Assembly: GCA_047495785.1 (NCBI GenBank) | Contig: JBLDXI010000016.1 | Location: 496,001 to 560,000, forward strand | Source: Lepidodermella squamata | Taxonomy: Eukaryota; Animalia; Gastrotricha | DNA: 64,000 nt | Direction of reading: 5' to 3' | Part shown: piece by piece, positions 8,509 to 57,799 of the stretch | Position numbering within the stretch: position 1 is the stretch's first letter | How the letters are laid out: each line of letters opens with the position of its first letter | Notes under the pieces: generated by a model | Databases searched by the model: none | The model's input: the letters and a program-made list of their open reading frames with translations, nothing else | What the model was told of the DNA's origin: nothing | Program-made: the position numbers and the translations under genes

Positions 8509-8577
8509 ATTAACGGGTTTCTGTAGTACGCTATGCTCGAATTGGGTCATGACGTAAGCGGTTGAATCGGATATATA

Positions 8578-15092: not shown

Positions 15093-15705
15093 ATGCCACT
15101 TTTTCGGATTCTGGCACTTATTTCGGTATTTGGTGGCATTCTGGTCGAGGCCTATAACAAAGACTTGAACGTTCAGAATTTAATGGCAGGTAAATTCATA
15201 TTTTTTGAATTTCGTTGATTTTTAGAAATTCTCTACTAGGAATATTCAAAAAATTTCAAAAATAATAAACTCATTTAAATAAAAAAAGAAAAGATATTTT
15301 TTCCGAATTTAATCAAATAGCTTTAAATTAAGATATTCAAATAAAAATTCTGAATTTAAAAAAAATGGATTTAAAAATTGAAAAATTAAAATTGAATTCG
15401 ATTTTAAATTTTTATTTTTATTTTTTTCAGAGCGATTCTGGAGGTTACTGATGAAAAATCAGTTCAAGGAAGCGTTCAAGCAATTGCGGCTTATGGTTCT
15501 GTTCGAAAAAGCAACTTCGAAACAGCGATGTCAGGAGGCGGTTGTCAACGACGCGAAAGCCCTGTGCCGCAACGCCTCACCGCACCCGTTCAGCCTGTGG
15601 CGAAAGCAAGTGGCGCTTCAAATCATGTCGCCCGATCGACGGCTGGCTGAAATCACGCGAGCCATCGCCGAATCTCGCGATGTTGTTCGGCAAGGCTCGA
15701 AATGA
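15093..15705 (+). CDS. Secreted SPDRR-family orphan protein, copy 1 (about 123 aa)
   Basis: Exons 15093-15189 (signal peptide, phase-1 intron) and 15431-15705; TATA-like element at about 15049; AATAAA at about 15799; three paralogs in the window. Confidence 0.9.
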
Positions 15706-17557
15706 TGGTTTTACGGAGAATTTTGCTCTGATAATTTTCGTATGAGAATTGTTTCCTGGTTGAATGGTTTTGTTTTCAAAAGCTGAAATTTAAACTAAAA
15801 TAAACTTTATTTTCTGTGCGCTGCAAGAAGCGTATGAGTAATTCACTAAATGTAATTTTCGGACAGAATCAATAATTACCCTTTCAAAAAAAATTATTCA
15901 ATTCCAAATTCCTTGAAATACAAAATTATTGAAATTCCATAACTTGGCGAGGAAAGCACCACGAGCAAACCACAAATACCTCAGCTTTGCTAATGTTTTC
16001 ATACCTCATTCTATGCAAAATTCGCATCACTCTCTGATATGCAATTCGACCTTGATTTAAATTTGCACACTGGATTGTACAAAATGTCCCCAGTTGGGTC
16101 CGAATCGAGCCGAATGTTATACCCTCAACCTTAAAGATGGTGTAACACATATACCATGATTGATAATTGATAACAAAATTTTTACCATAATTTTTCAGTG
16201 ACAGGAATTTGGCTCCGTAATTGTGCCGTATTATTTGTGGCAGTATAATGCCGTAGATATCGAAGATATCAATAAGATTCACACGAATTTATGTTCCATT
16301 TTTCTTACGCTAATTTGAGAAACCAACTTTTCCCGGTCGACCTATGTCGTTTTTTGAGACTCATACTGGACCTGGAATGGGAACGGACTGGGAACGGCGT
16401 AGGCATTGCGCGAAATACGGGTAGAATGGGGGTATCTTACCCCACAGTTCGCAAGGCCAAAGATGAAAACCCCAAACATACCACATGGGGGACCCTTTGG
16501 TCACACAATTTGGGCCCGAAAATACCCCCTAGTACCTCAATTCAGAAAACAGCCGGCTGGAGTATGCGGTGAAACTTTCGTCCATTTCAAAACTCCGATG
16601 CATAAGTACACTACTTGCGAGTGCAAGTTTCCAGGTCAAAAATTTAGTGCTTCTGATGCTGCTAACTTGTTCGATTGCACCTGATGTGAGAAAGCAAGGT
16701 GTCGTCCTAAAAGTTGGTTCAAACGAGCTGGTATATGAGAACCTCCGCAGCCATTGTGAGCATCATGTACAATCATCGGCGCCCGCAGATTACAGCGGAT
16801 CAGGACATCCCAGACGTTGCCCTCACAATTCCGCCGACCTTCTCGATGCTGAGATCGAGCCTCGAGATCGTGCATCAAAACATGCATGGACATTTAAATA
16901 AATGGACATGTAGAAACGGAAGCTTTCACCGAGTCGTTTCCTTTATTTCACGAGCAATCAAGCTGGTTCTTGCTGGTTCTTCAGCGCCACAAACGTCATA
17001 TTTTTTCTGTTGAACTTCTTCGAAAGCTCGGCTAGAAATAACAAATGAATATTGCACAACATCTTACAATTATCTTTCTAGCTGCGTCGTCTGTTGAGGC
17101 TAAATTGCTATGGAACAGTTCGATTCCGACGAGAGTTAGGTCCTCATCTTACAACGCTAACGACTCGTCGCGCGTAACTATCAGCCTGCTGCTTTCGTGC
17201 AATTATGCGGGAACAAACAATCCCCAAGGCCCTATTTGCTCTGAAGGAATTCGCTATGCTCTTGACAGCATAAAACGACAGCCGAATCTGCTACCCGGAA
17301 TCGAACTTGCCATTGATCCAATCGATGATTTCGTAAGTTGAAGGCTCAAAAAAACCGCAGATTCCCCGTAATTGTAACCTATTTTAGTGCAGCGAACCTT
17401 TAGCGACCATGAGGTTTTTCGCTGAGATGCGGAGGAATGACCAAGTTCCAGATCGATTTCCTCTCATCCTGTATCCTACTTGTTCAGTGCAATACACCTT
17501 GGTAAAAACTCTGCAGCATTACAACTTCATGAGTGTAAGTCGAAATATGGATTTGGG

Positions 17558-17643
17558 TATCCTTCACTTGCGTATCTGAGCCAAGGATAAGGATAAGGTT
17601 AGGGCTATGGTTAGGTTTCGGGTTAGATACGCAATTGAGGGTA
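17558..17643. mobile_element. Tiny TIR element with TTAGGG-like core in intron 2 of GPCR C
   Basis: Inverted ends cttgcgtatct / agatacgcaat; core ggttagggctatggttaggtttcgggttag. Confidence 0.5.
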
Positions 17644-17699
17644 ATTCCTAGATAAATATTTTGGAGACGGAAGACATAAGTAGAAGTCTGTTTGATCTC

Positions 17700-17830
17700 C
17701 CAGCCAGAGAGCGATGTAGGACAGTAGAACTGGTTAGGATAAGGAAATCGACATAGAGGGTCGATTGGCCTTTGGCCTTTTGGTTTGATTTGAATTCAAC
17801 TTGCGGACCGATTGAACTGGTAGGGATGAT
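17700..17830. repeat. Dispersed repeat; reverse-complement copy at about 21471-21546
   Basis: Blocks agagagcga..taggac..agaactggttaggataagg and gaccgattgaactggtagggatgat recur inverted. Confidence 0.7.
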
Positions 17831-20800
17831 GATGACTGATTGTACTCCAACTTTAAAATTCCGAACCCCGTCCGAAGCGCGTCCAAATTTGTTTATAAAT
17901 CCAACTCAAGATTATCGTCTTATGCTTATCGCCTTACTCTAATATCTCGATTTTCAGGTAGCTCATTGGAGCAGTCAAAATGATGTTTTCACGCAGAGGA
18001 ATCGTTACCAGAATTTATTCGTTGTATCACCCCCGTTGGCGATTTCTACGGATGGTATTACCTCATTCATGACAGCTATGGGATGGAAGAAGTTGTCCTT
18101 CGTCTCAGATATGAAAGATTCATTATACGCAAGCGATATTTACACTCAAAAGTTGCTGGAACAAAAGTTTAACGTCACATCATCCGTTCGATACAAAATT
18201 CCACTTCTGAATGGTCTCATACCAGATTCTGAGAGCATACGCGCTGTAGTGGAGGAATTGAAGCGAAACGATGCGAGAATCATCAGTATAGGAACTGCTT
18301 CACCCGCGCGCTTTGCATGCTAGCTTCATCGCTACAAGCTATTCGGGCCTAACTACGTTTTTTTCGTGTCTATGTTAACTCCTTTCCAGCCAACTGATCC
18401 TTTGCGGTTTGACTGGTGCACGGAGGCCATGTTGCGGGATTCATTCAACACGGCTATACAAACACGATGACCCTGGGCATGGGGAATCTAGCCGATTCTT
18501 TCGGGAATTCAGGGTTAGACCTCGATTCGGCGCTTATGTCCAGTATAGATAATCCCCAGACAAAAAACAGCTGGGCAATCCGCCAGTACACGTATGACAG
18601 TGTGCTTTTAGCAGCCCACGTTTTAAATACAACACAGACGTTCCTGCGGCAGGAAAATCAGTCACTTATCGACTGGGTGACTACTGGCAAGAACTTCGCG
18701 TCCAACGGAAGCTACATAATCGAAAAAATTAAGGAGGCGCTTTTTTCGACTCGAGTTACAACAAAGACGGGGGAGATAGCCTTCGAGCGAAATACTACCC
18801 TCAACTCAGGCGGAAATGTGATTTTCGGATACTTCAGGCTTCAATTACTGCCTAACAGCTCGAGCCCACTTGCGATTCCTTTCGCGACATTTGATGCAAA
18901 AGCTAAAAAATTCGAGCTGATACCTGGGAAACTAAAATGGAAAACTCTCAGCGGCAATGCTCCGCCAGATTCAGTCAGGATTGTTCAAATCGTTCTCCCC
19001 TTAATTTCAACTGAGGCCTACGTTGCAATTACAATCCTGTCATGCCTCGGAGCGTTCACAGTGATATTAGCCACTTGTTACCAGTTGAAATGTCGAAAAT
19101 CACCGCAGGTCATGAATTCTACACCAAAACTAAATGCGTTCATTTTGCTGGGGGATCTATTGCTTCTAAGCTCTAATTTGGTCCAGTTACCTTGGTATGA
19201 AGACGGCTTTGCTAGAATTTGCATGGCATCTTACGGTCTTTTGTTTCTTGGAATATTCTTCCTGGTCGCAGCTATGGTTGGTAAGTTGGAGCTTGCCAGA
19301 CTACTGAGTTTGACCAGCCGGCAAAAAGGAAGTATGTCCAGAGTGATAAGCTCACTAAAAATGGGACGCAGCCCCAGAGCAACTGCCCAGGAAAGCATCA
19401 CGAAGGCAGCTTCCACCGTGAGAAAAATAACCTCAACTGCCAACATTGAAGCTAAATTTGCTTCAATGCATAAGCTTGTTGTAATCGCGATTTCGACTGT
19501 TTTCGTCTTTCTGGTCGCTCTATTATCGATTTGGTTTTCCCTTGATCCAAATGATATGACTGTGACTCTTAATTCACCTCAACTATCAACCCTCGACGAT
19601 TCACTAGCATATCAGGAGGTCGTTTTCGAATGCTCTATCGGAGATTCTTACCTAAGCAAAGCTGCCATTGGTGTAATTTGTGCAATTTTCGTGATTCTAA
19701 TGCTTCGAGGGTCACTTGCTGCTTACAAAGTTCGATCGGTAAGCGATTTTTCTAATTTAAAACATAGATGGATGATATTACTCAGTTTAAATACCTCCTC
19801 TTCATTTCCAGATAACCTTGGAGCGATTGAACGACCTGAAAGCAATAGTTAAATGCTTTTACGGGACAATCTTGCTGTTAGCTGCTGGCGCTGTGATTGC
19901 GGCTGTTATCTTCACGGAGCAGGCTAAGCAACGTTTGGCTTTGTCAGCGATGATTCTATCATGTGTAACGCTTAACTTGGGGCTCATTTTCATACCCCGT
20001 AAAACAATCGACGTTCAGCGAATCAACTCGAGCCTTTGAATGGCCAATATAAATATCATGAACATATATATACTTTAATGATCCAGCTATTGAAAGCGGG
20101 ACCGGGCGCTCTCATCTTCTCTGCGTCACAAATTAAGAATTTTGAATTATTTGAGTATATTTGAGTATGAGGATGGGCGAGTTTGCAGACGAGTTTCCAG
20201 GTGCAGGAATGAACAGGTTTTCGATTTCGATATTTATCTATAGTAAACCTGTTGATTAAACACTGGATTTCCAATCAGGGCTAGTTTGAAATAAATCGTA
20301 ACAGATGAGAGTTAAATGCGCTTTTCTCCTCTACTAATACAACTTTAATTACAGATGACACCTTTAATGATCCAATGACCGCGCAGCCTAAATAGTTGAA
20401 TAATGGACATCGTGTGAACTGAAATAGTTTTAGCCGGAAAATAGCAAAAACCTCTACGCCAGCGGACAATTATTATACCTTGGAAACTCAATCTAATAAC
20501 GCACAGACGGTGTCATGGTTGGCTTGCATGTCGTCAGTCATAAACAGTTTGAGAAGTGACGCAGGTGCGCATTTTCACCGAATTCCCCGAATTCATGATT
20601 TATTCCGGACAGGTTTGTTGTCAATGTGTTATATATTAATAGCCTTTATTCTAGACTAAACTTTGGCGCAACTTAGCAGACACCACGCAACCTGCCACGA
20701 CACGTTAGGTTAACAGTGCTACGCTAGACCAACTAGATCGAAGGGAGAGATATGTTTCGAACTGATAACACCTGTCGTAAGACGTAACACGAGTGCTTAC

Positions 20801-22251
20801 GAGCGGTTCTAATTTTTTCGATTGGAAGAAATTGATTTTGGGAGAAGGAATGATCATCGGCTGCCGGGTCCCAGGAAGTGTTCAAGCTTTGGCAAGCAGT
20901 ACCAGGGTGGCACTGAAACCTTTCTGCCATCTTTCTCCAATAGGTCATGGCTGTGATAGCCTTGGTGATAGCGGGTATTGTGGCAATCACACCCTATCAT
21001 TGACGAGACAATTTCTCGAGAAAACCTTCAAATACCTTCAGACATTATTAGAATTTCTTGCGTGGAATCTCCGCCCCAGACCACTGATCTGTAGAGCAGA
21101 CTTAGAGCACCCATGAGGCGAGGCATACCTGAGGCGATTGAAACTCCGGCTTTTCACATATGTCATTTCTCGATTCTAGAGCTTGATGTAGGCGATGAGG
21201 AAACTTCAAAGCTGGACTGTATCCGAATGAGTGAAATTGGCTATGCTAATGGCATACGGGCAGAATTCTTTGGGTCAGCCTGGGAGAAAGTAGTTGGGCC
21301 ATGGAAAAAGTTTCTTAAGATTACGGTGCCACTTCTCGGAAAGCGATTGAAACACGATTTGCAAATGCCAAAAGAAGTATCGCTTGGAAACTGCGTTTTT
21401 CGGACCTCTCATAGCTTATATCCCTTTGTTCCCTGAAACCAGAGATCGAAGTACCGCTAGGAATGGTCGAGATCATCCCTACCAGTTCAATCGGTCCCTA
21501 ACCCTTATCCTAACCAGTTCTGCCGTCCTACTTCGCTCTCTGCCTGAAACATCAGCGTGATTGATATTTTTTCTTACCTTGAACCGCAAATTGATTCCGC
21601 GCATCGATCTTTTAGCACAATGCCAGTCACATCAAAAAGCGATGTTAGTTGTTGATTTAGTCTTGTCAGATATCACATGAATGGAATAGAAATCCGGTCG
21701 AACTAAATAATGAGGCTGGACGACAAAAATGAGGCCTGGATGAAATTCGATCCTAATCTAAGGACGCTGTAAAACAGAAATGTTGTGTCGGTTGTAAAAA
21801 TCTCACCCTGACTAGAAAATTAGATTGGACACGATTAATGGGTCGCGCTAATCAAAAACCAGTATCATGTTTGACTAGCAAAATTCAATCAATTTAGCAG
21901 AATCAATCTTACAAAGTACAAACCGATGAGCGTTACGGTTGACTAGATGCCACCGACTCGCGTAGTTAATAAACTGAGCCGTTGCGTTGACTGTGCTTTT
22001 CCACCGACAAGGGAATTCGAAATTGAATTTGGACAAAAATGATTGGCTTTAGCGATGTAGGTTGTGTCACAGCTCATTTGCTAATAGGTGCTTGCCCGCA
22101 CTTTGGCACTAAAGTGGAAATTAAATCTTTCACGAAACGTTGAGTGACGTTAATAGATATCACTTGAACTAGAACAAAACGCCAGCCGCTACAATCAGGA
22201 CTACAAATTTACAATTTTCAAAGCATTTAATGTTCAATTTTCAGTTGAAGC

Positions 22252-23062
22252 ATGACTCCTTTTCGAATTATCGCGCTTATTGCTTTCGCAGGTATTCTAG
22301 TTGACGGCTATCACAATAAATACTTGATGGTTCAGAAGCTGATGGCAGGTAATTTTTAAATGAATTTTCAGAAATATTCAAAACCTCAAACCTAATTATA
22401 AACCCTGAACCCTGAGACCACACTCCATCTCTCGAATCGAACCTTTTTGAGGCCTGAAACGTTTATTCGTTTTCCGGAAATCGCACATTTTCAAACGACA
22501 GATGGTTGGATTTCCACCTTTCCACCGTGCTCACCCCAACAGATTGAAACCAAACGTGCTGAGAAACGGAATTACATGTTCGTGAATTTCAAAATATACT
22601 TTTCAATTCCAAATATAATTTGATTCAACTCCCATGAAAACAGACCTTATAGTTTCTGTTACGTACAAAAGTACTTATTGAGTAAGAACCAAAAAGGAAC
22701 CTTTTGATTTCTTACTTCGTTTTGGTTTCTTATTTTGATTCAGCCTTAATAAAACATGATTTGGCATATTTTCAGATCGATTTTGGAGGCTTTTCATGAG
22801 GCATCAATTCAGGCAGGCATTCTTGCAATTACAGCGCATGGTCGTGCTTCAAAAAATAACATCAAAACAACGATGTCACGATGCGGTTCTCATCGATGCA
22901 AATGTCCTGTGCCGCAATGCTTCGCCGCACCCTTTCAGCCTGTGGCGAAAACACGTCGCGCTGCAAATCATGTCACCCGACCGACGACTGGCTGATATCA
23001 AGCGAGCCATCGCCGAGTCTCGGGCTGCTTTCACTAAAATGATGAAGAAGAACCAAGACTGA
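22252..23062 (+). CDS. Secreted SPDRR-family orphan protein, copy 2
   Basis: Exons 22252-22348 (97 nt, same as copies 1 and 3) and 22776-23062; sequence DRFWRLFMRHQF..C..LCRNASPHPFSLW..IMSPDRR. Confidence 0.9.
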
Positions 23063-24019
23063 ATCTCAGTAAAAAGGTTTATGAATTGATTAGCCATGGG
23101 AAAATTACTCAGTTTTAAGGAGTGTCGATTGTCCGGAGCCAACATTAGCATTCACAGCACGAGTATCCCCAAAATCATCTAAAATGGGTCGTTTCGAGTT
23201 CTTCAAATTAATGCTGGTGAAATAAAAATTCGATGCTGTTTTTACCCAAGCCTGAATCTTCCAAAAAATGGATGACCAAAGGGTTTGTTCTTCCAAGAGA
23301 GCAAAGTAGGACATGGCACCTTGACGGGCAACCAACAAATCTCTCATCCGTCAAGAGCAGCTGCGCTATGTCGAATTTACTAAACTATCACGTAAGAGCA
23401 CCTGGAAAAATAGTTGCGCCTAGCTCTCACGCGAGGCCAATGCTCAACACGGTAAAATTTAAACGTCGTCGATGCGCGATAACATATTTACTTATACATC
23501 CAACATCCAAATAGTCGAGTTTGTACATTTCAAATTTCTTCTACCGATTGGCGAGTCACGTGCTTTGCTTCAGCTGTCATTTGGTAGGGGCATAATGCAT
23601 ATTATATCTTCATTGGATATCACGAGGTTTTTTGAAGCGCAGCACACGGCTGAAAAGCGGGCTATTCTTTGATTTCAGCAGCCGTTGAAAAATTGTACCG
23701 AATTTCTAGGGCTATCTGCCGCTATGCTATTTGTCGAACGGCGATACTCGGTTCGCCCGGAAATCGCGTGCAAAGTCAGTCAAATTGGCGTGCAAGGCAA
23801 GTCAGAATGGCGGCTTGCTAAAACCATTTGCCTATGATTTCAATGCGCCTAAATATTTGGAGTGGCTTCTAGATACAAGGAATCTAGGTGGTTAGAGTTT
23901 TTAGGTGGTATGACGAACAATATGTTCATCTAAGAGAAACCCTACAGTTGTGACGGCAAAATGAAATAAAAAGGACGCAGTATTCATGAGGTATTGTTTT
24001 ACTCAACATTCAACGGGCC

Positions 24020-24670
24020 ACCAAAACTCTCTCCTCCGCCAATATCATCAGTAATAGCTGCGCCGCAGGAGCCTCGGCTGCTTCACTGCAGCTTGTAGAA
24101 CTTCTTATGCACCTTTTTTCCTTCGCAATTTCATTATTTTTATTAAAGAAACACGTGTTTATTTTACATGATTCTCAGCTTCTTCATTTTATTCATTTTC
24201 TTACTTTTTACTACTTAAGGATTTTCTCGATCTTCGAAGGTTCGCTGAATGCGAATACGAAACCCGAATAAGATGAATTTGATATTTGATAATTTGATAT
24301 GAAGAACATTCTCAAGTATTTTGCTGAACATGAAAATTTAATGAATAACTTCGAATAAGAAAGATAGCTCAATGACAGACGATAGTATGTGTAATTTGAA
24401 GCCGAGTCGAATGCACCGATCCGCCTCGTCACAAAAGCTGGAACAATGGTTGCGTCCGGCGATCGCACGCGGCTGTAATTCCAATGCTCAACGTGGGGTT
24501 TTGAACGCAGTCAGCAATGCGCCGTATCTTATATACATACTCACGCTCAAAATATCCAACTAGTCGAATATATTTTTCAAAATAATATGACTCCCCCTCT
24601 TTTGCGTAATATCGAGAAATGCCGGCATCGCTGTCACCGTTTAGCGTTAGCTCATCCTTTCAGCTGCTGT
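24020..24670 (-). pseudogene. Decayed remnant of a PAN/apple-like gene (upstream region, start and 3' end)
   Basis: Reverse-complement similarity to 29230-29590 (upstream region, ATG TTC TTC) and to 29910-29970 (ctgcagtga..gatattggcggaggagag); the coding middle is lost. Confidence 0.65.
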
Positions 24671-25198
24671 TTTGTAGAGATGAATAATGCGTCTTAATCG
24701 AGTACACATCTTAGCTGCATGTCACGTGTAACGAGAGCCGAAAAAACCGAAACTCCCCGACGGATGCTTAACGGTGTAAATCCCTTAACGCATTTCCAAG
24801 GTGCGATCTTGGACCCTGGAGCTGCTGTCAGGGTTGGATAAAAAGATGTTGTAGTATTGACTAAATAACTAGCGATTACCACCAAAGACCAAAGAAGAAA
24901 AGCAAAGCGAGCATTTTTTGTAAGTTTATCGTTTATCCATTAAACCTATCAAATTTGACGAAACAGCGAGCTAAATTCGATACTTTGTCCTGTCTGGCCG
25001 AGTTGGAAGGGGGGTCCTGGAAGAGCTTTGAATTGGTCTCCTGTAAACTGTAAGGATCTCTCATCGTAAGCCACCAATATTTGGTGTAGTAAAGACAGTA
25101 GGTATCCTTCAAATTTTATTTCATCTAAAGTCACGTGACGGGCAATCAAGAAGACCTCTCATCCGCTCATATTCTAAACAGCAGTATCCTGTATCTGC

Positions 25199-25556
25199 TT
25201 ACTTCAGCAACTTCACTGCAGCTTGGAGTACTCCCAAGCCCCAAGCGGGTGAGGAATTGACATTCTTCGACGTGCATCTGTCGTACAACGTGCAGGTGGC
25301 TCCCCTACGATAATTCATCGAAAACGCCTTGCATTTGATGTTAGCCGCACAACGAGCCTGGCATGGTGAATTCATATATAGGCATCTCAACAATCGACGA
25401 TCCGCTACTACAATCCTTATCCGTAATCTTGAACACTATAAGAAAAACCACATTATCAATTGAAATTCCCCATATTCAACTCAAAAGATTGAACATGCCT
25501 GCAGATGAAGCCAGAGCGAAGATCATTGCGAAGACTAGTGCAACTTTTAAGAACAT
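25199..25556 (-). pseudogene. PAN/apple-like secreted protein pseudogene (paralog of 29578-29922)
   Basis: Signal exon MFLKVALVFAMIFALASSA. Relative to the intact paralog it has an 8-nt deletion (ctgcgcaa), a 7-nt duplication near the end, and a GC donor instead of GT. Confidence 0.85.
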
Positions 25557-26517
25557 ACCTAAGGTTTTGGCTGCAAATTAATCAATTGATTAATTACTTC
25601 GAAGATGGAAGTGTGCTAAATGACTGAGCTTCGTGTGTGTTGTGTCAGGCGAAGTTGAATGCATCCAACGGCCACGTCAGAGCAGCTGGAACAATCTTCG
25701 ATCCAAGCGATAACAAGATGCTATAACAACACGGATCAACGAGGGGGAACTCCAACGCAGTCAAAAATGCTTCGTCAATCATACTTGCATCCTCCAAGGT
25801 GCGAGCATTTGACAAACAGTTATGATTAATTCTTCTTCTTTTCCCATTTACATACGACATTCGAGAAATATCGCGAATATTGCTACATTGTTTCAGCTGC
25901 CATTTTGTAGGTGAAAATTAAGTCGCTGTAAGTCATTTCAGAACATGCGACATCTCAGCATTCGCTATTCCATCAAATGTTACTTTCCTTGTGAGAGATT
26001 CACGTGCAACTATTTCTGCTTTACCTTTAGACCGCTTTACCTATTCAGCTGCGAAAAACCAAACCCAAGCTTGCTCGATAAGACGAAAAAATGTTCACTG
26101 AGAGAAATTGATTACTGGTCAGATAATGAACGCATTAAAAAATTACTGCATATATTCCTGTTTTCAGATCTGATATTCAGGTGTTTGCAGCGATTAAGTG
26201 GAAATAAATCGTGCGAAAGTGATGTAGGAAGCTGGCGCCATTGCCGCGTAAAAATAGCGCGATTACAAGCACGGGTTATCAGCAAAGGTCGGAGTCAAAC
26301 CACTGTTTTTCCGAAGAAAAAATGACCCGAGTCGCAACAGGTGTGAGACAAGTTCGGCGCATGAACTGCGTTTCGCTGTTGTTAATTGCTGCGCGGATTT
26401 GCCTGAGAAAAAGTAGGCGTGAATTCGGATGGCAGGCACACGATAATACAAATACATTGCTTGATGCATTCCACGTCTTAACTAACGCTCATTTCAAGTT
26501 TGAAGCAATATTGCTGA

Positions 26518-28582: not shown

Positions 28583-29577
28583 TAAGCATGGAACTGCAAG
28601 GGAAAAGGAAGGACAGTTGTTTATTGTAACCTCAGTAATCAATTTTAATCAACTGAGAGAAGGCATAATAAATAAATTGACTTATTCTTGGCAAATCATT
28701 GAGTAACGAGTTTTTTTAATACATTGCTTCATTTGGCTCCAGCCATGATTCTCTACCTCCGTAAAATTAAAGTAAAATTAGAGGATGCTTTTGCTTAAAA
28801 AAGCTAAAGCTTTCGCCGAGCCTGCGACGTCGACTCTGACGAGGATTGGACGAGGATATCAGAATATGTTATCCGAAAAAAGCAAATATATCACAAATAA
28901 AAATACGACTCAAATACTGTGATAAAGCCGATATTATTTCAAATTTATGAATGTTTGGCCGTCATTCTACTTCGCGCGTTTTAAGACAGGCCACTTGCTT
29001 ACCGTTTGCAATAGTGAAAAAATACTGCCAAAAAGAGTAAATTTGCTTATTGCCGTAAGAAATTGGATAAGTACTGTGACAAAGACATTTAGCAGCCATA
29101 CTCAAAATTCATCTGTAGATTTGAAATTCGGCCTTGAGCCGTGAGTTGCAGCCTCATACAGAAATTCCTAGTGATATCAAACTATGATGTGCACCCGAAT
29201 TCGACGCATTATTCATTTACAAAAACACCGCAGCCCGCAGCTGAAACGATGCCGACATTTCTTGATATCACGCAAAACACGTGGGTAGTGGGGATGAAGT
29301 CATAATATTTTGAAAAATTATACTCGGTTAGTTGGGTATGTATGTAGAATGCAAGCATATGCTTGGCGCATTATTCACTACGTTGAAATTCCCCGGCGTT
29401 GAGCGTTGGCGTTAGAGCATGTTTTGATCGCCGGGCGCAACGATCGTTCCAGCTGCTCCCACGTGGCCGTCGAGTGCTTCGCTTCAAAACAGACTTACCA
29501 ACCATAGTCATTCAGCTTTCTTTCATTTTCGAAGTAATTACTTATATTCCTTTTTTGCCATAGCCAAACGCTTCAGT

Positions 29578-29922
29578 ATGTTCTTCAAAGCTGCACTGGT
29601 CTTCGTAATGCTCATCGCTATTGCTTCATCTGCTGGTATGTTTTTCTCGAGTTGAAGTTCGAAGATTTAAATTGACAATATTCAATTCATTAATATAGTT
29701 TTCACGAAAACGGATAAGGATTGTAGCAGCGGATCGTCGATTGTTGAGATGCCTATTTATGGATTCACCACTGCGCAATGCCAGGCTCGTTGTGCGGCTA
29801 ACATCAAATGCAAGGCGTTTTCGATGTATTATCGTCGGGGAACCACCTGCACTTTATACGACAGATGCACGTCGAAGAATGTCAATTCTGCATCCGCATG
29901 GGAATACTACGTGCTGCAGTGA
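29578..29922 (+). CDS. Small secreted single PAN/apple-like domain protein (about 93 aa)
   Basis: Exons 29578-29635 and 29699-29922; signal peptide; C..CQARCAANIKCKAFSMY..CTLY..C six-Cys pattern; downstream AATAAA. Confidence 0.8.
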
Positions 29923-30301
29923 AAAGACAGGACGCTGCTGCTTACGATATTGGCGGAGGAGAGAATTTCGGTTGCCCGTCAAGTGATAATTAAGAATAAA
30001 TAAACTGTGAACGTTGCCCTCTGTCTTCGCTAAATCAATGAAAAAATGAAAATACCGAGGTGTTCCCTGCCACTGGAACCACGAGACATTTAAATAAAAG
30101 AATTAAGCTAAAATTCCCTAAGGAGTACAAGTTACTACTAAATCAAGGTAAACTCGCCCGGTCTCGCGGAAACCGGCATTTGATATCCCGAGAAGTAATC
30201 TATATTTCTGTTCTTATCAATTATTTTCCAAAAATTCAACAGGAGTTCAAAGTAGGAAAAACCCAAAAAGTGGCCAAATTTAGGGCCCAGTGCTCTGCTG
30301 T

Positions 30302-31375: not shown

Positions 31376-32350
31376 ATGCAAGTTACTTTACTATTTATAC
31401 TGATCGCGGTTACTGGCTTTGTGATGGCCGATGCCAATGATAAGCACGTTGAAACTCAAAATAGAATGGCAGGTAATAAGCAGAGAGCAGAGATTTTTTG
31501 TAATTCGTTTTTCTATGTTACAGAATTCATTCATGTGTTATAAAGTTTTGTTCCCTTGAACTCCTGCTTTTTAAGAATTTAAGGAATATTTTTGAATTTT
31601 GAGCTTTACCGCTTCATTCGCGCAAGCAATGAATGAACAAAATATTTGACTAATTTTCTGTGCGACATTTCAGAAGGCGCCAATTTGGCAGAATTTTTCC
31701 CATCTTTTTCAGCAACAAAATGAAATGCGACATCTCAGCGAAATCAGATTGGAAGCATTCCATTAACTTTGAAAGCTAATGTAAGCAACAAAGCCTGTGA
31801 TGCTTGGGCAATTGAGATTTCGCTGAGATGTCGCATTTCATTTTGTTGCTGAAAAAAAATGCAAAAATTGTGCTAAATTGGCGCCTTCTGAAATGTCGCA
31901 CAGCAAATTAGTCAAATATTTTCTGGTTCACTAATTTGTTGTAGAGCGTGAAGCCGTGGAATTTCCATTTGAAAAAGCATCGGATTACATTTTTCAATTT
32001 TAATGTAACATTTTACTATAATCTCTTCGATTTTGACTTCGAATTCGATTTTTCTATTTCTATTTTCAATTGTTTTTCCAGAGCGATTTTGGAGGCTATG
32101 GCTAAGGCATCAGTACGAAGAAGCTTTCGAGCAACTAAGGCAAATGGTTGTATACCAAAAAACGATATCGAAACAGCGATGCCGTGACGCTATCCCCAAC
32201 GATGAAAACGCCCTGTGCCGCAATATTTCACCGCAGCCGTTCAGCTTTTGGCGCAAGCGCATGGCGCTGGAAATCATGTCGCCCGATCGGCGGCTCGCTG
32301 CAATCGTTCGAGCCATCACCGACTCTGGAACGGCTCTACGGCAAGGATGA
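31376..32350 (+). CDS. Secreted SPDRR-family orphan protein, copy 3
   Basis: Exons 31376-31472 and 32082-32350; ERFWRLWLRHQY..C..LCRNISPQPFSFW..IMSPDRR. Confidence 0.9.
31634..31930. mobile_element. Foldback MITE with arms of about 110 bp in the intron of SPDRR copy 3
   Basis: aaaatatttgactaatttt..gcgacatctcagcgaaatc is mirrored by gatttcgctgagatgtcgc..attagtcaaatatttt. Confidence 0.9.
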
Positions 32351-48500: not shown

Positions 48501-49198
48501 TACTTGGAAAATACCTTGAAACAAACTTCAAAAATCTGCAATCTTACCGTACTCCCTTTTCAATCAGCCTAAGATCTTAAGCTATGTGCACTGAAGATGT
48601 CGGCTGTTTAAATTGTTAGAATAGTCTAATGCAACGTTCATTTCACTTGAACCCGTGATGGCGAGGAGTTTGAAGCCAACTCTTGAAATTGGAGCTTCAA
48701 ATTTCAAATAAAACAGCAGACTTTCGGAATCTCCCAGTTGAAGATGCCCTATCCCAAAGGGTCCAGGATATGCGGCAACTGAAAGAAAATCTTGCTTGGT
48801 TGATATTTATTTTGAATGCGAAGCTAGGTTAGTAAGTGGAAATTCCTGGACAACTGGACAAAATCGCAGTTTGCTCATTACTGGTAACTTGATTTACATT
48901 TCGTTCGATACGGTCACGGGTTTTTTCGGCTAATGGAAAATCGTACTTTCAGTATTACTGAAGGCGGCGATAACTTGATTTGCGTTTCATTATAAATTAA
49001 AAACGGTCACGTGTTTTTCGGTTTATTATTACCACCTGTTTGTTTGCTTTGCAGTGCAAATTCACTGGAATTCGCCGCAATAAATGAATGCTGACGCAAT
49101 GTTTGAGGACTGCAACAAATAACGAATCAGAGTTAGGCTTTATTCGCGGGATTTCGCTGGCGTTGCTTATCCACCCGCTTGAGGCCAATTAACAAGAC

Positions 49199-50398
49199 AT
49201 GATAGCTTATTTTTTCGCTTTGAAAGTGGCAATTCTATCCATTTTACCTTTTAAAATCCTGTCGGATGAAGTAACACAGCTCGGTCGATTGAAAGAAAAA
49301 TTCGTCGAGCTATGCCCAGCAGTTCGTTCGAAGTATCTACCATTCGAGGTGGTGTATTACAACAGGCATTCAGGCCGAAGCGATGAAGACTTTCTAACAG
49401 TGAAAGCTGAGCTTTCCCTGTTCAGATTCTTAGAGATCAACGACGTGGAGCGTCGCCTCTCGATTCTAGCAGAGCTAAAATACGAATGGAGCTACCCATG
49501 CCCGAAAATTTCGTGCAAGGATCTTTTCGGGGCGGTGGATGACCCGATGTGCAACGTGACAGAGCTGCAGTTCAGCATCTCTAGCGATGAGATATGGTTT
49601 CCAATGTTGACCCACGTCAATGGCTTCTCGCAAACGCGCCCATCAGCTGACGAGGCTTCTTTTTTACCAAAACGCATCTACCCAATGACGGCACGGGTAT
49701 TCATGTCTCACTTCGCCCGCTTCGACTCGATCTGCAAAACATTTCAATTCAGCCACTTCCCGTTTGACACAATCAATTGTTCACTTATGATGACTTCGAA
49801 TGATCCTATGATCAGGTATTACCCCTACGAAATGACTGTCGACAATGGGTCTTCAGCAATTTTTATACGAGATACCGAGATATGGGAGTTGCTGGGCACT
49901 CGTCCTTTCATTGTCATGCTAAGCTCCTCTGGAAGTGAGCTTCAAACCCCCCGAATTCATTTTTCTATGCTTTTCCGCCGCAAGCCGAATTTTTACATTT
50001 GCAACATGTTGCTACCGACGATTTTACTCTTTGTTGTATTGATCGTCTCGCTGTTTGCTCATCCGGATTCTGGCGAGAGATCAAATCTATGCATGACGGT
50101 TATGCTGACGTACGCAGTCATTTTGACAATGATTTATGAGCAGATACCGCGAACTTCCGAGCCTGTCTATTTGGTATACATGGTCGTGACGAAATTTGTA
50201 TGCGGAGCTGTGATAACAATTTACATGCTGATCGCGTGGTTCTACACTACGTCAGCCTCATGCGGAAGTGACGCTGAGCTGGATAAATCTTCTCGTTTAA
50301 CCAAGGTTCGAATCGGAGACATGATTGTAGCAATAGCGGCATCTGTTACAGTTGCTGTATCGGATACAGTTTATTTTTGTTTAATGATGAGTAATTAG
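49199..50398 (+). CDS. Intronless pentameric ligand-gated (Cys-loop) ion channel subunit, nAChR/5-HT3-like, predicted cation-selective
   Basis: 399-aa ORF; signal peptide; IWFP; C..FPFD..C loop; RRKPNFY pre-M1; DSGER before M2; IPRTS M2-M3 loop; four TM segments. Confidence 0.93.
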   Translation: MIAYFFALKVAILSILPFKILSDEVTQLGRLKEKFVELCPAVRSKYLPFEVVYYNRHSGRSDEDFLTVKAELSLFRFLEINDVERRLSILAELKYEWSYPCPKISCKDLFGAVDDPMCNVTELQFSISSDEIWFPMLTHVNGFSQTRPSADEASFLPKRIYPMTARVFMSHFARFDSICKTFQFSHFPFDTINCSLMMTSNDPMIRYYPYEMTVDNGSSAIFIRDTEIWELLGTRPFIVMLSSSGSELQTPRIHFSMLFRRKPNFYICNMLLPTILLFVVLIVSLFAHPDSGERSNLCMTVMLTYAVILTMIYEQIPRTSEPVYLVYMVVTKFVCGAVITIYMLIAWFYTTSASCGSDAELDKSSRLTKVRIGDMIVAIAASVTVAVSDTVYFCLMMSN

Positions 50399-50718
50399 CA
50401 TCAAGTAATATGTTTCCTCTTTCCTGGAGAAAGGACGAAAACTCTCGAGAAATAACTGGACCGTAATCTTTAAAAATAAATCGTTTTCAATGTACTGTAA
50501 TCTAGACGGAAGACAAGAAAAGTTCGTACTAATCGGGCTTATAACAGCTGAGCAGATTTTGTTTGATACGAGCCTAATAATCTGCCTACGTAAAAAGTAA
50601 ATAAGTCCCTTGGCACGTTGAGGTTGACCCATGTTCCGTGTGGTACTGGGGCCTTATCTATATCTGATGGGTTTTATTAGGTTCCCACAACGATAATTTG
50701 CCGTCAGTGCGGTGAAAA

Positions 50719-51958
50719 ATGCGTCTGTTTCAGACACTATTTTCCTTGGCGATTCTCCAGTTTGCTGGAACGTATGGTTCGAAAAGTCCAAATTGGCTTC
50801 ATGTTGGTGGAGACGCCGATCACACAGGGTACAAGGCCGAAACACTTGGCTCTGTCAAATCTGTAGAAATAGCTTGGACACTCCAAATCGGCGGAATCAG
50901 AACAGAGGAAAATCCATTATCTAGACCTTTGATTCTAAATTCCACTCTCTACTACGTCACAAGCTCTGGCCTGCTCTACGTGATTGATCCGAAATCTGGT
51001 AAGGTGGAAAATAAGGTGAAAATCGACCCGTCAGGCCAAAATCCAGACTTCTACTTCTCAACAATTGACGACGTGAATTCCTTGCTGTTTACCTGCGACG
51101 CTGGAGCAAACAAGCTTCATGGAGTCACTTTGGCAAAAGGCCGGGAGAAGGTCATGTGGAGTGCTACTTTGAAACAATGTGGCGATTTGATAGCTAGTAA
51201 ACAGCTCAAGCGAGTCTTTGCTGTGGAATGTTTGGACTGGAACAAGTGCCATCTCGCAGCGTTTAATTCGCTAACTGGAGAGCCTATTAAAATGAAAGTG
51301 ACCACTCAGTTTCTCACCGCCTTGTCTTTATACCAAGGTGGGAGAAATCCATATTCAACTTCCTATTTCTATCCATTTTCTGCCATTAGGAAATCGTCTT
51401 TTTGGGATCGGTAACAACTCATTCCTCGTGGAATTCGATGCAACCAATGCCGGCGATGTGCTTTGGAAGCTTCCTTACACCGAAGCTTACGATCTAGAGG
51501 ATTACCCGCCAGCAGTGATCCAAGGCACTACTTTTGTCCCAGATGGTGACGTAATAGTAGCTGCGGTTGACGTCGAGGCTCCTAAGACTATTTGGACGTC
51601 GAATTCTAGCGACACGCCCTTTGAGAGCTGTTTGCCACAAGGCTCTTCTGATGGCGCGTTTTTCTATCGAATCTGCGAGTTTTCCGTTCATAAACAAGAC
51701 ATTAAAACGGGGAAATTCGTCATGAAATACGGCGATAATTTAGATGACATCGCTGATAGGCCAATCGTTACTGATGATGTTGTTATCGTGCCTCTAGGCC
51801 GTGGAATTTTTGTCTATGACAAAACCAGCGGTAAACAGTTGGCAAGCTTTGTTACAGGGGATAGATACCCATTACAAGGCTATTTCGCCTATTCCGAAGG
51901 TGTTGTGTATGCTGTTGAAGAGTTCGATTTCATGTACGCAATGAAAATCGGTCAGTAA
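50719..51958 (+). CDS. Secreted PQQ-like/BamB-type beta-propeller protein (about 395 aa)
   Basis: Exons 50719-51337 and 51390-51958; signal peptide; WLHVGGDADHTG N-terminal motif; repeated blades (LYVIDPKSGK, AAFNSLTGE, FDATNAGDVLWK, DIKTGK, YDKTSGK). Confidence 0.85.
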
Positions 51959-52526
51959 AATTCAGCTTTTGAAACCTGTAGAGCCTTTTACCAATTTCGC
52001 AAAAGATGTTCAAAGAAATTCTAGACGGTCCGACCTTGGTCATGATTGACGTCAGCCGCATTGGGTGAGTTGGATAAAGTTTCGGGCGTGTCGTAGGCTC
52101 TAATCTAAGACAAGCCTGGGGTTATGACGACATTCCTTACAGCTGCCTTATCTGACGCAGCAGAGGTGCAATAATTAGCTGGACTCAGCTATTTTGTTTT
52201 TATACAACGAGGCAAGCGAATAACTCCTGGATCATGTGCGGGAAATGAAAAAAAAATGGCAAATGACGTTAAACACCAGTGGCATAGAATTGAAAGCTGG
52301 GGTAGTTCGGAAGACAGTAAACCAATAAGGCAAGAAATGACCATGCAGAACAACGAGTCACACAGTCGAAATATGCTTGGTTATTTTCAGCCGCACTCCT
52401 CATCCGTGACTCTACGCCCGATGTTCAATTTTATACTCTATAATTAGCACTTATCAATTTCTCACCCTCAAAGTTTCGATCTAGGGAAAAACATTCTCAG
52501 TATTACCATTTGTAATACTTCTCAAG

Positions 52527-55275
52527 ATGAGCTTTGCTTATTTAAGTTTGCTGATCGCGTCTATTCTAAGCGTTGTAAGACCGGACCAGAATGTCACTGC
52601 CGTTGAGTTGAACAGCACAATGCCAGAATATCTCGAATCGTCTCTCGGCGAGAATCGAACTATACCACTCAGCATTTTCGCCGCCCTGAGCTATGGCGGG
52701 GATGTGTCCCCTCTCGGACCTGTCTGCTCGACGTCAATGGAAATCGCCCTAGATCGACTCCACTCCAATCCTGAGTGGATCCCTGGCTACAAATTACGGA
52801 TAGATTTGGTTGATGATGAAGTGAGCTTTACATCCTAATCTTAAACTATTTATTAACACAATTTACAGTGTATCGAGTACGGAACGATTAGTGGGATCAT
52901 GGGCCTGCTAAGATCGAAAGACGACTATGGGGATAGGATCCCACTTATGGCTCAAACTGGCTGTGAAAGACTTGGTCAGCTTATTATGGCGGAAGCTGTG
53001 AAGCACTTTGATACAGTTATGGTGAGCAAATCTAGCCTTAATTTCTCTGATTAATCTTGCTTCAATAGATCGGATTTTGGTCCAACTCGAAGGAACTGTT
53101 AGAGGATAGGAAACGCTACAGCAACTTTTATGGCTTAGGAACAGTCGGGGACTACATAACCATTCCAACGAGAAATTTCTTCCTAAAAATGGGCTGGTCA
53201 CATTTTTCAATTTTATCAGAGCAGACCTCTTTCTACGACATGATCGAGAGCTCGATGATTGACGGTTTAGCTCGGGTTAATATCACCCTAGTTTCAATCG
53301 AAGATCTCGAATACACCGATTTTGATTCTGAAATAATTGCAACAACTTTTGACCGAATTGTCAACTCCAATATTAGAGTCATAATCGTACTTGCTGATTA
53401 CGGAGCAGCGAGAGCTTGTTGGTTGTACAAGGCCGGCTTGTTCGGGCCTAGCTTTGTTACGTTTTTCCCGAAATGGACCGATTTGCTGACAATTCCTGAG
53501 GAAATGACTTGGTGCACATTGGATATGGTTCATCAAGTTCTGGAAAGCTCCCTCATAATAGGCGATGTCAGTATGCCTGAGGCGTTTGGCCGCAATTACA
53601 ACGACTCGACCGGTTTTGCGACTGAAGATTGGGAAAGAAGTATCAGAGAGAGGATTATCGATGTGGATAGCAGTCCTTACTGGGTTTACTGGACCCCGAT
53701 ATGCTACGATTTGATATTATACGTAGGTGAAACAATAGCCGAGATCGAAAGGCTTTTTTCCAAAGGTGGGTCCAAATTGATCCACTAGACTCGACTTTTA
53801 TTGCGATTTTTTCTAGAGAATCTAACACTGGTAGACCTCACCTCTCAAAGCAGGGCGCCTAATATCGACATTCTGCAACTGGTAAATCTTGCGGTGGAAA
53901 GGACTGATTTTTCTGGGTTCAAAGGCTACTACAGCTTTGATAACGAAACCCATACAAATTCGAGGGGGTATGTTCCGTTTCTTTTCACTCAAATGGATTC
54001 GAATGGAACTTGGAAAGCCATAGCTGAAGATCGAGCTGGGGACCTTATTCTCTATGAGGAACACATGAATTGGCGAACTAGGGATGGCAAACCTCCTAGG
54101 GACATGCTAACCATTGAGCTGGTCGAAGTTCCAAGTGTCTCAAGCTCCACATTCGGGCTCTTTTCTGGTATGATTTTGAAACTATCAAGTTTATTGCTAG
54201 AACTTTAATTTTCCAAGGTTTCGCTGCGCTGGAAATTATAGCAGCAATTCTGTCCTTATTCTTTTCATATAATGCTCGGAAAATCTCAAACCCGAAATTT
54301 CGAGACTCCTCCAGGCCTAATCTCATGGAACTATCGGCTACATGTGGAAACTTGATGATGCTAAGCCATGTTTTCGCTATGCCATACGGGTTATCACATG
54401 ACATGGTAATTCACTGTTCATGGACAACGAGTCTGCTCGTAATAGGTTATTCTTTGACATCTATCGGTGTTTTACTGCTGTTGGGAAGAAGTGACGAGCC
54501 GAAGGTTAACGTATATCGGCGATACAGCAGCCGCTATTCCATAAACCAGCTCCCCAATGTTCCGACGAATCCGATCTTCTCGATTGCGTGCCTTCTAGCA
54601 AGCTGTGCTTTGTACCTTGTTGCAATATTGAATGGACTTATTACTACGACGGCTGTCTTCGGCGAGGTATTACCGTCTCCTCATGACGACAGTGTCGTTT
54701 TTCAGCTGTTCGCCACTAGATGTGAGATAGGAGGCAATGCGTCGCAGGTTAATCTTTCTTTATTGGCGGCTGTTGGAGCAGTTCAGGGGTTGATCATTTT
54801 ACGGATACTTTTCCTCTGCTATCAAAGGAACGTAGTAAGTGATGACTGAAATGAGATTTTAGCTTAAAAATTTCGAAAGATACAAAAACAGCTAATTTTG
54901 AAAATACTTTATTTATTGAAAAACCGAAAATACTAAAAACCGGAATTTCTTCCTTTCCAGAGTCTGCGTAACAATCAAACTGGTCATAGATTGGCTGCGA
55001 AAATTGTAGCTCTCAATTTGATTCTGCTCCTAGCTGGCAGCGTCTGTGCTTTCATGCTGATATCCAGCATCTTTCAAGTCATCGCTGTAGTCACGTTTCT
55101 CTACGTTTTCATGATCTCTTTTGCGCTATACGCTGATAGAGTGAGTTTTAACTAACTTTACACTTCACCTGTTGTAACAATTTGCTTTTCCCTTTTAAAG
55201 GTCACTGTAAAAGTAGACGCGGCAAATTCCCGAGCAAGTCGACGCAGCTCTAATTATCGACTATATTACCTTTAG
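52527..55275 (+). CDS. Class C GPCR F (GABA-B-like, VFT+7TM), apparently intact
   Basis: Exons 52527-52820, 52869-53021, 53069-53765, 53817-54167, 54218-54834, 54961-55140, 55201-55275, all GT-AG and in frame; close paralog of E. Confidence 0.9.
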
Positions 55276-56224
55276 TTAATTGTATTTCTATAATCGCACA
55301 GCATGGCTTCTGTAAGTACAGACATTAAAGCAGACACTATCAGAATTGAGCCAGTTATAAATTTCGAGATAATCTCGATTATAGAAAACTGACATCAAAA
55401 TGGTTGATACATTTTGAAATATGTCATCGGAAAATCGGATGTCATCCTGCTGTCAAATTTGCAGGTAAATGGATGCTGTCTTTGTGACGTAGGATCTATA
55501 GATGTCAGAATGCGAAATTTCGAGGTATAAGAGAGCTGGAAGCCAAAGTTTCGAAAACACCCCTGGAGAAATGCGATTAGTTTTTGGAAAAGAGGAAAAT
55601 AAAGAAAATATGAATAAATTCAGGTTTCTTACGCTAAATCTGAGGTTCCGGTACAGATTTCCCTAACCCCTGCCAACTAATCCCTGAACTAACCCGGTGG
55701 TCTTCCTCGCCCTCGGGATTCTGACATACTGCTTTTTTACACCCTGCGAGAAAGGTTCTATAAGGGTATCCGAAAAAGCGTATCCGAACAGTGGGATGAG
55801 TCGTTCGAATAGGCATGAAATTTCCTACAACGAGTCACTTTACGAATGCTTGTTACGAGCATCTTGCGTTATGTCGAACTTGGGCGCCAAACACGAAGCG
55901 GAAGCAGCTCATACCGCGACAAGGTATTCACGTGATTTGATTATGAGTCATCGAGAAATCTATTTGCACGTACTAGATGAGATTCAGCTTCAGATTAGTA
56001 GTCGGTCACAGGGTCCGCGATCTTGGATCTTGGATCCTGGAGCTGCCAGATATGAAAAATGCTGTTTTAGCCAAAATGACTGGTGATTTCAACCAAAAAC
56101 GAGCGAAGCGAGGAAATTTTGAAGATGTTCCTCTAAAACACGCTCCAAAAACCTTGGTGAAACAGCGCCGTGATAAATTTTCATTTTCTTTCCCGGTTTG
56201 GCCGAGCTGGGGGGGTGCAGAAGT

Positions 56225-56385
56225 AGTGCGAAGTAGGATCCGGGAGCTGAGGTGTTTTCTACTTGTTTTTTAGGACCCAGCCGAAGAACCCAAAGTGGCC
56301 CCCCTGTGGTTTTTCAGCTTTCCTCTGGTTGTAGTCCCGGAGCTGGGGTGTCGTGACACCCCAGCAACCCTGTACTTCGCACCCT
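56225..56385. mobile_element. Second copy of the short gtgcgaagta-TIR element
   Basis: Matches 30302-30434; ends tacttcgcaccctg. Confidence 0.75.
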
Positions 56386-57141
56386 GGGGGGATGATAGTA
56401 CCCCGAAAGTAGTACACTGAACCGACAAACTCTGATCGTTTTACATATATTTAATGAACGCTTTATTCATAGCTTCAATGAATGCCCTTATTACGACATG
56501 GTGTTGAGAAATGGTCAACGCATTATCACCAACACTGTCCACTCAATATTCCCGTCCGTAAGAATGAGTTTCTGATTCCGTGAAGTGAGACTGGTTTTCC
56601 TCATGTGCCCACGCCCTTGCCCAGCAGCCCGGCGCGGACTGATTGACAGCAATTACAGGCTGGTCATCCATTATACCGCGTACCCCTTAGAAATTGATCA
56701 ACTGCTAATCAAGAACAACACCTGCTACTTCAAAGCATGTCTGCAACTGTCGCCGAGTATCAGGTTGAAATTCATTAGGCTAAATTTCGCAGTATATCAC
56801 CATGATATCACCGCTAATTGAGTTGAATGAAACCGGCGTCTGTGACACAAGCCACTGGAGCATAACGCCGGGAATAACCGCTTATACCTGATGTCGGTTT
56901 TATAGGAACTTGTTTACGAGCTTTTTCGAGCTAAATGAGATTATAGCCTGTCATGTAATCCCGCTTGGCACATCGCTCAGCGCACTCGTGATAATCCGCG
57001 CACTCTTTCACAACCTATATTTGAACGGCTTATCCCCCTATAATCTGGTCATACACGTCAAGTCTCGGTAAAATCGGCTAGCATTATTTAAACCCGCCAT
57101 TGCGGTTATTTTTGCATGCCGTGAGGAAAAAGCTCTGTATT

Positions 57142-57799
57142 ATGAACTGTTGGCGAATTGTCGTAGCGAGTTTCCTGCCGATTTGCCTGCAACATTTTGC
57201 CGTTATGGCCGTACCTACCCAAGCTTCGATGGCGGAATCATCCGATGACTCATACGACGCTGTTCGCAATGCTCTAGCTGGTAAGAATACTTTAAAAATT
57301 TTGATTTCAATTTCCTAAAATTTTCTAAAATTTCGAATTTCGATTTTTCGATTTGAAATATCTTTTGAAAAATTTGAAAAATAGAAATAAAATATTTCGA
57401 ATTTTTCAGAAGTTCAGATTCGTACCGGACAAATTTAGAGAGCTAATTTTTCGATTTTTTTCAGAGCACATCTGGATCAAAATTATGAAAAAGCAACCGA
57501 AAGCAGCTTTCGAAGGTCTGAAAGCTCTAGCAGCGTATGAACGCGAGAAATCGCTCCTGCGATGCCGGCAAATGATGCCGGACGAATCGGCGAATGGCCA
57601 ATCGCATTCGCTGTGCCAAAACACTTCACCGCAACCATTCTACTTGTGGGCGCGATTCGCAGCCCGGGCTATTGTATCACCCGACCGGCGATGGGACGGC
57701 ATGTGGAAGGCGATTGTATCGACACGGCTGAAAGCGGCTGAAAAGGTGAAAGGCAAGGCGAATTCGAATCAAGCCAATTCAACGCGGCGGCCGAAGTAA
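57142..57799 (+). CDS. Secreted SPDRR-family orphan protein, divergent copy 4
   Basis: Exons 57142-57280 and 57465-57799 with the same phase-1 intron; RC..LCQNTSPQPFYLW..IVSPDRR; AATAAA at about 57830. Confidence 0.85.

Follow-up and report, generated by a model that had tools for sequence, protein, structure and literature searches.

A window of 64,000 nucleotides (nt) of Lepidodermella squamata DNA, the whole stretch analysed here, carries four related plus-strand genes of two exons each that encode small basic proteins with a predicted signal peptide (Table 1). An earlier note, made from the letters of the DNA, had described four intact genes with a common phase-1 intron, and this observation is confirmed. 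With every GT donor and AG acceptor tried, none of the four gene models contains an internal stop, and the encoded proteins are 123, 127, 121 and 157 amino acids (aa) long for copies 1 to 4. Their introns (241, 427, 609 and 184 nt, respectively) are all GT-AG introns of phase 1 and fall at one common point of the protein. Each has a GTAA donor and a TTT[TC]CAG acceptor; these acceptors resemble those of nematodes, but several acceptors of neighbouring genes, read by eye, end in TAG. The greater length of the copy 3 intron is due to a palindromic element that sits inside it. AATAAA is found 31–159 nt past the stop codon of each gene. Coverage by run X1 is DNA-like, as introns and spacers are covered and no joint is seen at the four introns. 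A fifth copy was not detected in the window, where the next-best frame of the profile search had an E value of 0.58.

The 14-nt element TGAACTRRAACAAA occurs three times in the window, each time 5' of one of copies 1–3, and was not found 5' of copy 4. It was absent from all 200 base shuffles, a post hoc figure since the pattern was derived from the copies themselves. This common upstream element suggests that copies 1–3 share their regulation.

The first 20 residues of the four proteins have a hydropathy of 2.6–3.0, against at most 1.5 further on, with small residues at -1 and -3. A signal peptide is thus predicted in each copy from hydropathy alone, which makes the secretion proposed earlier likely. 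The mature regions contain exactly two cysteines, at residues 66 and 78 in copies 1–3 and at 80 and 97 in copy 4, which has two further cysteines within the signal region. The C..LCxNxSP[HQ]PFxxW motif and the SPDRR word are present in 4/4 copies, so that what had been noted for these elements holds even for the divergent copy 4. Copies 1–3 are mutually 53–68% identical and copy 4 is 31–36% identical to them; 25 of the 110 exon 2 alignment columns are invariant among the four copies. A profile built from these exons recovers them at E 1e-41 to 1e-46, all four being members of the profile. The isoelectric point (pI) ranges from 9.8 to 11.0 and the net charge is positive in all four, in agreement with the Arg/Lys-rich segments described before. 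The amphipathic look ascribed to these segments fared less well. The best 18-residue hydrophobic moments (0.49, 0.52, 0.59 and 0.59 for copies 1–4, and 0.37 for the outside homologue P0002 presented below) gave p values of 0.33, 0.23, 0.05, 0.02 and 0.80 against shuffles, so that amphipathicity exceeds shuffles at p<0.05 in one of five proteins and is borderline in one more.

In order to look for relatives, 1.84 billion representative proteins were searched with a HMMER profile. Two proteins were obtained at E ≤0.001, of which one is real. This protein, P0002 (82 aa, from an 877-nt ENA contig, E 9e-7), is 31–36% identical to each copy and, used alone as a tblastn query, recovered all four copies (E 2e-5 to 3e-10). 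Its similarity starts exactly at the start of exon 2, where the preceding two residues, Ile and Ala, are among those compatible with an AG acceptor in this phase. For these reasons P0002 likely represents exon 2 of an animal gene that shares this intron, its frame having been called by a gene finder made for prokaryotes. A tree groups copies 1–3 with support 97 and leaves copy 4 and P0002 outside that group. All five proteins have fourteen invariant columns in common; P0002 retains W, A, L, RC and C-x-N-x-S-P-x-P-F-x-x-W. An N-x-S glycosylation sequon after the second cysteine, absent from the earlier note, is likewise invariant in 5/5. It is followed here by proline, and a proline directly after such a sequon lowers its occupancy, a rule for which passages searched in PMC4977673, PMC1779586 and PMC2120544 gave no support. 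P0002 lacks SPDRR and has D-P in its place; its loop between the two cysteines counts 8 residues, compared with 11 in copies 1–3 and 16 in copy 4; and its homologous core is acidic (net charge -2, pI 4.9), while the cores of the window copies have charges of +5 to +9. Because P0002 keeps the motif with an acidic core and without SPDRR, these comparisons indicate that the motif is the conserved trait of the family and that basic charge and RR are not. SPDRR and basic character, put forward as hallmarks, therefore hold for the four window copies and not for the outside relative, whose existence also indicates that the family predates this cluster.

All other searches failed to connect the family to a characterised one. 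Pfam matched none of the four exon 1 products, none of the four exon 2 products and none of the five proteins once P0002 was included; NCBIfam gave 0/5 and PHROGs 1/5, at E 0.22 only. Among PDB sequences a single match was seen at E 0.19, and none in a second search. Word-based searching with the four-copy profile retained 0 of 182 candidates and, with P0002 added, P0002 alone among 255. When metagenome, viral and prokaryotic contigs were scanned for the pattern, 1/53, 1/8 and 1/41 candidates were retained, all false: those from a metagenome (L001) and a bacterial genome (L002) are hexapeptide-repeat acetyltransferases that have one 8-residue word in common with the family and lack its cysteines, and the one from a viral contig (L003) is a 22-codon frame. 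At library scale these three have E values of 98 to 5,500. The second HMMER hit, P0001 (E 6e-8), is a plant zinc-knuckle protein that was matched in 23 weak stretches, an artefact of repeats. Three motif words were unmatched in full-text literature, subscription journals, supplements and figures, where a printed sequence might give the family a name, being outside the scope of that search; the sole text in which SPDRR occurs together with 'signal peptide' (PMC4990251) appears, from the part available, to be unrelated. A profile search and a structure prediction with Foldseek, of the kind that had been proposed as checks, gave no confident match to a characterised family, which supports calling the family unrecognised. 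The narrow distribution anticipated for it is supported as well, with one outside relative in a collection poor in animal genomes, a composition that bounds any statement on the range of the family. Together, these results point to a real, apparently undescribed family of a common kind, that of lineage-restricted secreted proteins.

The purifying selection presumed from the intact frames is borne out by substitution patterns. The ratio of nonsynonymous to synonymous substitution rates (dN/dS) is 0.21, 0.36 and 0.26 among copies 1–3; of the three comparisons with copy 4, which are near saturation, two gave 0.29 and 0.32 and one is undefined. These values (0.21–0.36 in 5/6 pairs) indicate that the four genes are under purifying selection, and no sign of diversifying selection was seen in them. 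The corresponding ratio of proportions (pN/pS) in copies 1–3 rises from 0.20 (second cysteine to SPDRR) through 0.30 (long helix) and 0.41 (loop) to 0.86 (basic tail), which makes the first of these segments apparently the most constrained and the tail the least. Run X1 also contains a second haplotype over positions 57592–57727, in and beside the copy 4 motif, whose six differences all fall on silent third positions. The naive chance of this outcome, 3e-4, is overstated because a single contig is involved and transitions favour silent changes. This check concerns copy 4 only and draws on 40 of the 427 variants of X1, a DNA-like run that may be the source of the window itself.

Structures were modelled with AlphaFold2 from alignments of 4–5 sequences. 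Two helical models were obtained, with predicted local distance difference test scores (pLDDT) of 65 and 71 and predicted template modelling scores (pTM) of 0.37 and 0.48. In the model of copy 4 (exon 2 numbering) helices span residues 2–7, 11–36, 45–51, 58–70 and 74–105 and the cysteines are at 33 and 50; pLDDT is 78–86 over residues 1–30 and 81 over 61–70. The helix at 58 comes directly after S-P-Q-P and the one at 74 directly after S-P-D, so in this model both Ser-Pro motifs are read as helix starts. Ser-Pro-Asp is known as a helix cap, and the conservation of SPD could be explained in this way, given where the modelled helix starts; in P0002 D-P takes its place. Foldseek returned no match at E 0.001 among PDB and viral structures, and VIA none at Z ≥8 (best Z 6.7–7.0, among generic helical hairpins). 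The best scores in the ESM Atlas (0.92) belonged to unrelated or unnamed clusters, with template modelling (TM) scores of at most 0.55 over short stretches.

Our tentative preference, the likeliest of the accounts considered here though short of an even chance, is a secreted protein, helical in fold, whose role would be to recognise a specific partner, in the manner of a ligand, a pheromone or a binding protein. What favours it is that aromatic residues, prolines and cysteines are fixed over a long distance, while loop length, tail and charge are free, the core net charge spanning -2 in P0002 to +9. The 14 columns invariant across all five proteins, the low pN/pS between the second cysteine and SPDRR and the silent haplotype differences in copy 4 favour it too, as do the modelled helix starts after S-P-Q-P and S-P-D and the upstream element common to copies 1–3. 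According to this proposal, a small, mostly helical protein would be released by signal-peptide cleavage, predicted near residue 19–23, and act outside the cell. A 26-residue helix is predicted to lead to the cysteine-flanked loop of free length (8, 11 or 16 residues), which an intrachain disulfide would close; next would come a short helix starting at S-P-x-P and, at the C-terminus, a helix starting at S-P-D. The invariant W, RC and C-x-N-x-S-P-x-P-F-x-x-W residues may form the binding surface, so that a specific protein partner would be bound via the invariant core rather than via charge, and not by membrane rupture; the paralogues could be tuned through loop, tail and charge. Several points weigh against this proposal. 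Secretion and fold are predicted, and the disulfide and the binding are inferred; the models are weak overall at pTM 0.37 and 0.48, the disulfide is not read from their coordinates, and neither Foldseek nor VIA gave an outstanding fold match to a known ligand class. The segment values of pN/pS come from 13–32 codons each. The case against charge comes from one outside protein, P0002; all window copies are basic and might have acquired a role that depends on charge. The conserved motif, finally, could be needed for folding or polymer assembly just as for receptor binding.

The four genes lie in an animal gene cluster with short introns, whose features are collected in Table 1.

Table 1. Positions of the four genes, their upstream elements and other features of the window.
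Feature	Position	Strand	Remark
Copy 1 exon 1	15093..15189	+	predicted signal peptide and about 12 mature residues
Copy 1 exon 2	15431..15705	+	long helix, two Cys, conserved core motif, tail, stop
Copy 2 exon 1	22252..22348	+	predicted signal peptide
Copy 2 exon 2	22776..23062	+	most basic copy, pI 11.0
Copy 3 exon 1	31376..31472	+	predicted signal peptide
Palindromic (inverted-repeat) element in copy 3 intron	31628..31936		from self-blastn
Copy 3 exon 2	32082..32350	+	Gly, then stop, at the end
Copy 4 exon 1	57142..57280	+	predicted signal peptide and acidic N-terminal extension
Copy 4 exon 2	57465..57799	+	divergent; longer Cys loop and longer basic tail
Upstream element TGAACTRRAACAAA	15007..15020	+	86 nt 5' of copy 1 start; TATA-like box at -44
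Upstream element TGAACTRRAACAAA	22165..22178	+	87 nt 5' of copy 2 start
Upstream element TGAACTRRAACAAA	31246..31259	+	130 nt 5' of copy 3 start; TATA-like box at -92
Class C receptor genes (two)	900-9670	-	GABA-B1-like flytrap domains
Class C receptor gene	17045-20036	+	GABA-B1-like flytrap domain
Class C receptor gene	39388-41775	-	GABA-B1-like flytrap domain
Class C receptor gene	43023-45344	+	GABA-B1-like flytrap domain
Class C receptor gene	52485-54849	+	GABA-B1-like flytrap domain
Exons without Pfam match	12763-14102	-	directly upstream of copy 1; one unusually GC-rich
Inverted PAN copy	24300-25796	-	68-74% identical to the PAN-domain gene; frame appears disrupted
Mucin-like gene	26518-29300	+	Thr/Glu/Pro-rich 12-residue tandem repeat; weak AMOP match
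Small PAN-domain gene	29247-30038	+	Pfam E 6e-4
Cys-loop ligand-gated channel subunit	49193-50398	+	one 401-codon frame; very divergent; Pfam E about 2e-9
PQQ-type beta-propeller gene	50716-51958	+	hydrophobic N-terminus; one short intron
Neprilysin (M13) gene	59159-61427	+	zinc motif H-Q-x-x-H
MITE-like palindromic elements (150-320 nt)	2860-3081; 31628-31936; 34192-34387; 39428-39572; 62915-63072		MITE, miniature inverted-repeat transposable element

The six class C G-protein-coupled receptor (GPCR) genes form an orphan expansion, likely chemosensory; their word-based search gave no relative at E 1e-5, and nothing useful on such expansions was found in the literature. A rhodopsin-type receptor gene and a Quiver/Ly6 gene are also present. 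The neprilysin gene has H-Q-x-x-H where H-E-x-x-H would be expected and is likely to encode a non-catalytic member. One X1 contig skips 426 nt of the mucin-like repeat, so the array may vary in length or be collapsed. Summed X1 contig depth reveals high-copy repeats near 16000–16600, 21200–21800, 23800–24400 and 30300–30900. The whole window has a mild 10–12 nt AA/TT periodicity (raw autocorrelation, without shuffle control, of 0.045–0.049 at 10–12 and -0.006 at 5), and Rfam and tRNA searches of it gave no match.

Two other functions were considered unlikely, and about equally so. The copies could be cationic host-defence or membrane-active proteins binding anionic microbial surfaces, as their pI in 4/4, the helical model and the recent tandem expansion of copies 1–3 would allow; copies 2 and 4 even have windows with a moment of about 0.5 and a charge of +4 to +5, and mucin/AMOP and PAN genes are interspersed with the copies. 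However, moments are mostly at shuffle level, the P0002 core is acidic, the motif is the most constrained part and the basic tail the least, and diversifying selection was not seen; the antimicrobial or lytic-toxin role proposed earlier has accordingly lost ground. A structural or secretory product (mucus, glue, cuticle, egg or sperm coat), assembled through the long helix and perhaps interchain disulfides, would fit the open helical model, whose low pTM is what one would expect of a protein that is not stable as a monomer. The mucin-like gene between copies 2 and 3 and the upstream element, compatible with co-expression in one gland, go in the same direction. Against it, bulk matrix proteins usually keep less aromatic and proline invariance than is observed here, and the copies are devoid of repeats and low-complexity composition.

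Less probable still is a prohormone cut at the RR of SPDRR, and at RK in copies 1–3, to yield a disulfide-ring peptide and a C-terminal helical peptide. RR is present in 4/4 copies and RK/KR at residue 90 in 3/4, and the C-terminal Gly of copy 3 is a possible amide donor, but terminal Gly occurs in this copy only, RR is lacking at that position in the single outside relative, conservation extends along the whole chain and the model places RR at a helix start. RR is moreover followed by Leu or Trp, which convertases are said to disfavour. In favour of a prohormone, in the available part of PMC4990251 the insulin-like B chain of a bryozoan is predicted to be cleaved at SPDRR. We give a low probability to a soluble protein that would carry small hydrophobic molecules for the neighbouring receptors of chemosensory type, comparable to the odorant-binding or chemosensory proteins of insects. 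Their size, predicted secretion and helical fold are compatible with it, the window encodes six class C receptors, all divergent, together with a rhodopsin-type receptor and a Cys-loop channel, and mite group 5 allergens are the top VIA rows for the better model (Z 6.7 and 6.5); however, the proteins have just two cysteines and three main helices, Pfam has no match and these Z values are within the background of helical models. A protein ligand of the GABA-B-like receptors of the same cluster, the earlier note having suggested a ligand for neighbouring receptors, ranks lowest and seems a long shot. Copies 2 and 4 each follow a same-strand receptor gene at a distance of about 2.2–2.3 kb and copy 1 precedes one by about 1.3 kb, and the receptors are far from GABA-B1 (E about 5e-6), which leaves their ligands open. 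Yet proximity is the only tie between the copies and the six receptors, and it is expected where nearly all recognised genes of the window encode secreted or surface proteins. Genes and receptors were not duplicated together: the DNA similarity of copies 1–3 is confined to exon 2 and the short upstream element, the receptor by copies 1 and 2 is 25–39% identical to the others when the copies are 53–68% identical, and six receptors face four copies. Venus-flytrap domains, in addition, mostly bind small molecules. Equally remote is the boldest version, in which the proteins would be hormones or pheromones of a new, secreted and helical class, present in at least two distant animals, and their receptors the orphan GABA-B-like GPCRs of the cluster. 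If true, a Venus-flytrap receptor family would have come to read proteins as ligands, and the genes of both partners would have stayed adjacent.

Recognition of a specific partner thus remains our preferred, if tentative, reading. The family is under selection and predicted to be secreted, its sharp motif can now be searched in invertebrate transcriptomes, and P0002 shows which residues matter. Since orphan secreted families are common in little-sampled animals, its interest is moderate on present evidence; it would matter much more as a true signalling ligand, especially one of the orphan receptors encoded next to it.

Cationic alpha-helical antimicrobial proteins are likewise secreted, basic, helical and tandemly duplicated, but here the motif rather than the charge is conserved and amphipathicity is mostly at shuffle level. 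As in neuropeptide precursors, a signal peptide is predicted; of the dibasic sites that such precursors keep around a conserved peptide, RR occurs in 4/4 window copies and in 0/1 outside relatives. Odorant-binding and chemosensory proteins have four or six conserved cysteines; membership is ruled out by the two cysteines and the lack of a Pfam match. The mite group 5/21 allergens (Blo t 5-type 2lm9 and Der p 5 3mq1), small secreted three-helix proteins at the top of the VIA rows for the copy 4 model, align over 72–74 residues with root-mean-square deviations (rmsd) of 5.5 and 6.1 and 7–8% identity; they are tied with unrelated helical hairpins and their profile is unmatched. SXP/RAL-2 proteins of nematodes are small, secreted and helical and have Ser-x-Pro motifs. 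Their member Ani s 5 (2mar) was the first Foldseek row for the pTM 0.48 model (E 3.7, TM 0.24, rmsd 17), and their Pfam profile matched neither the copies nor P0002. In the bryozoan BnILP-B, as given in the portion of PMC4990251 at hand, a cysteine followed by S-P-x-P and a chain end in SPDRR can be recognised by eye as in our copies. Unlike the lophotrochozoan insulin-like peptides treated in that portion, the copies have two mature cysteines instead of six or more and lack Cys-Gly and an A chain; the six conserved cysteines and B and A chains of insulin/relaxin are found in none of the four, and the likeness is read as chance. The closest parallel in kind, compared by description, is a Hydra gene family of taxonomically restricted small secreted proteins (PMC2586386): in the available text of that paper its members are likewise small, lineage-restricted and paralogous, with a signal peptide and no known domain, whereas the family described here is distinguished by its two cysteines, its fixed motif and one distant outside relative.

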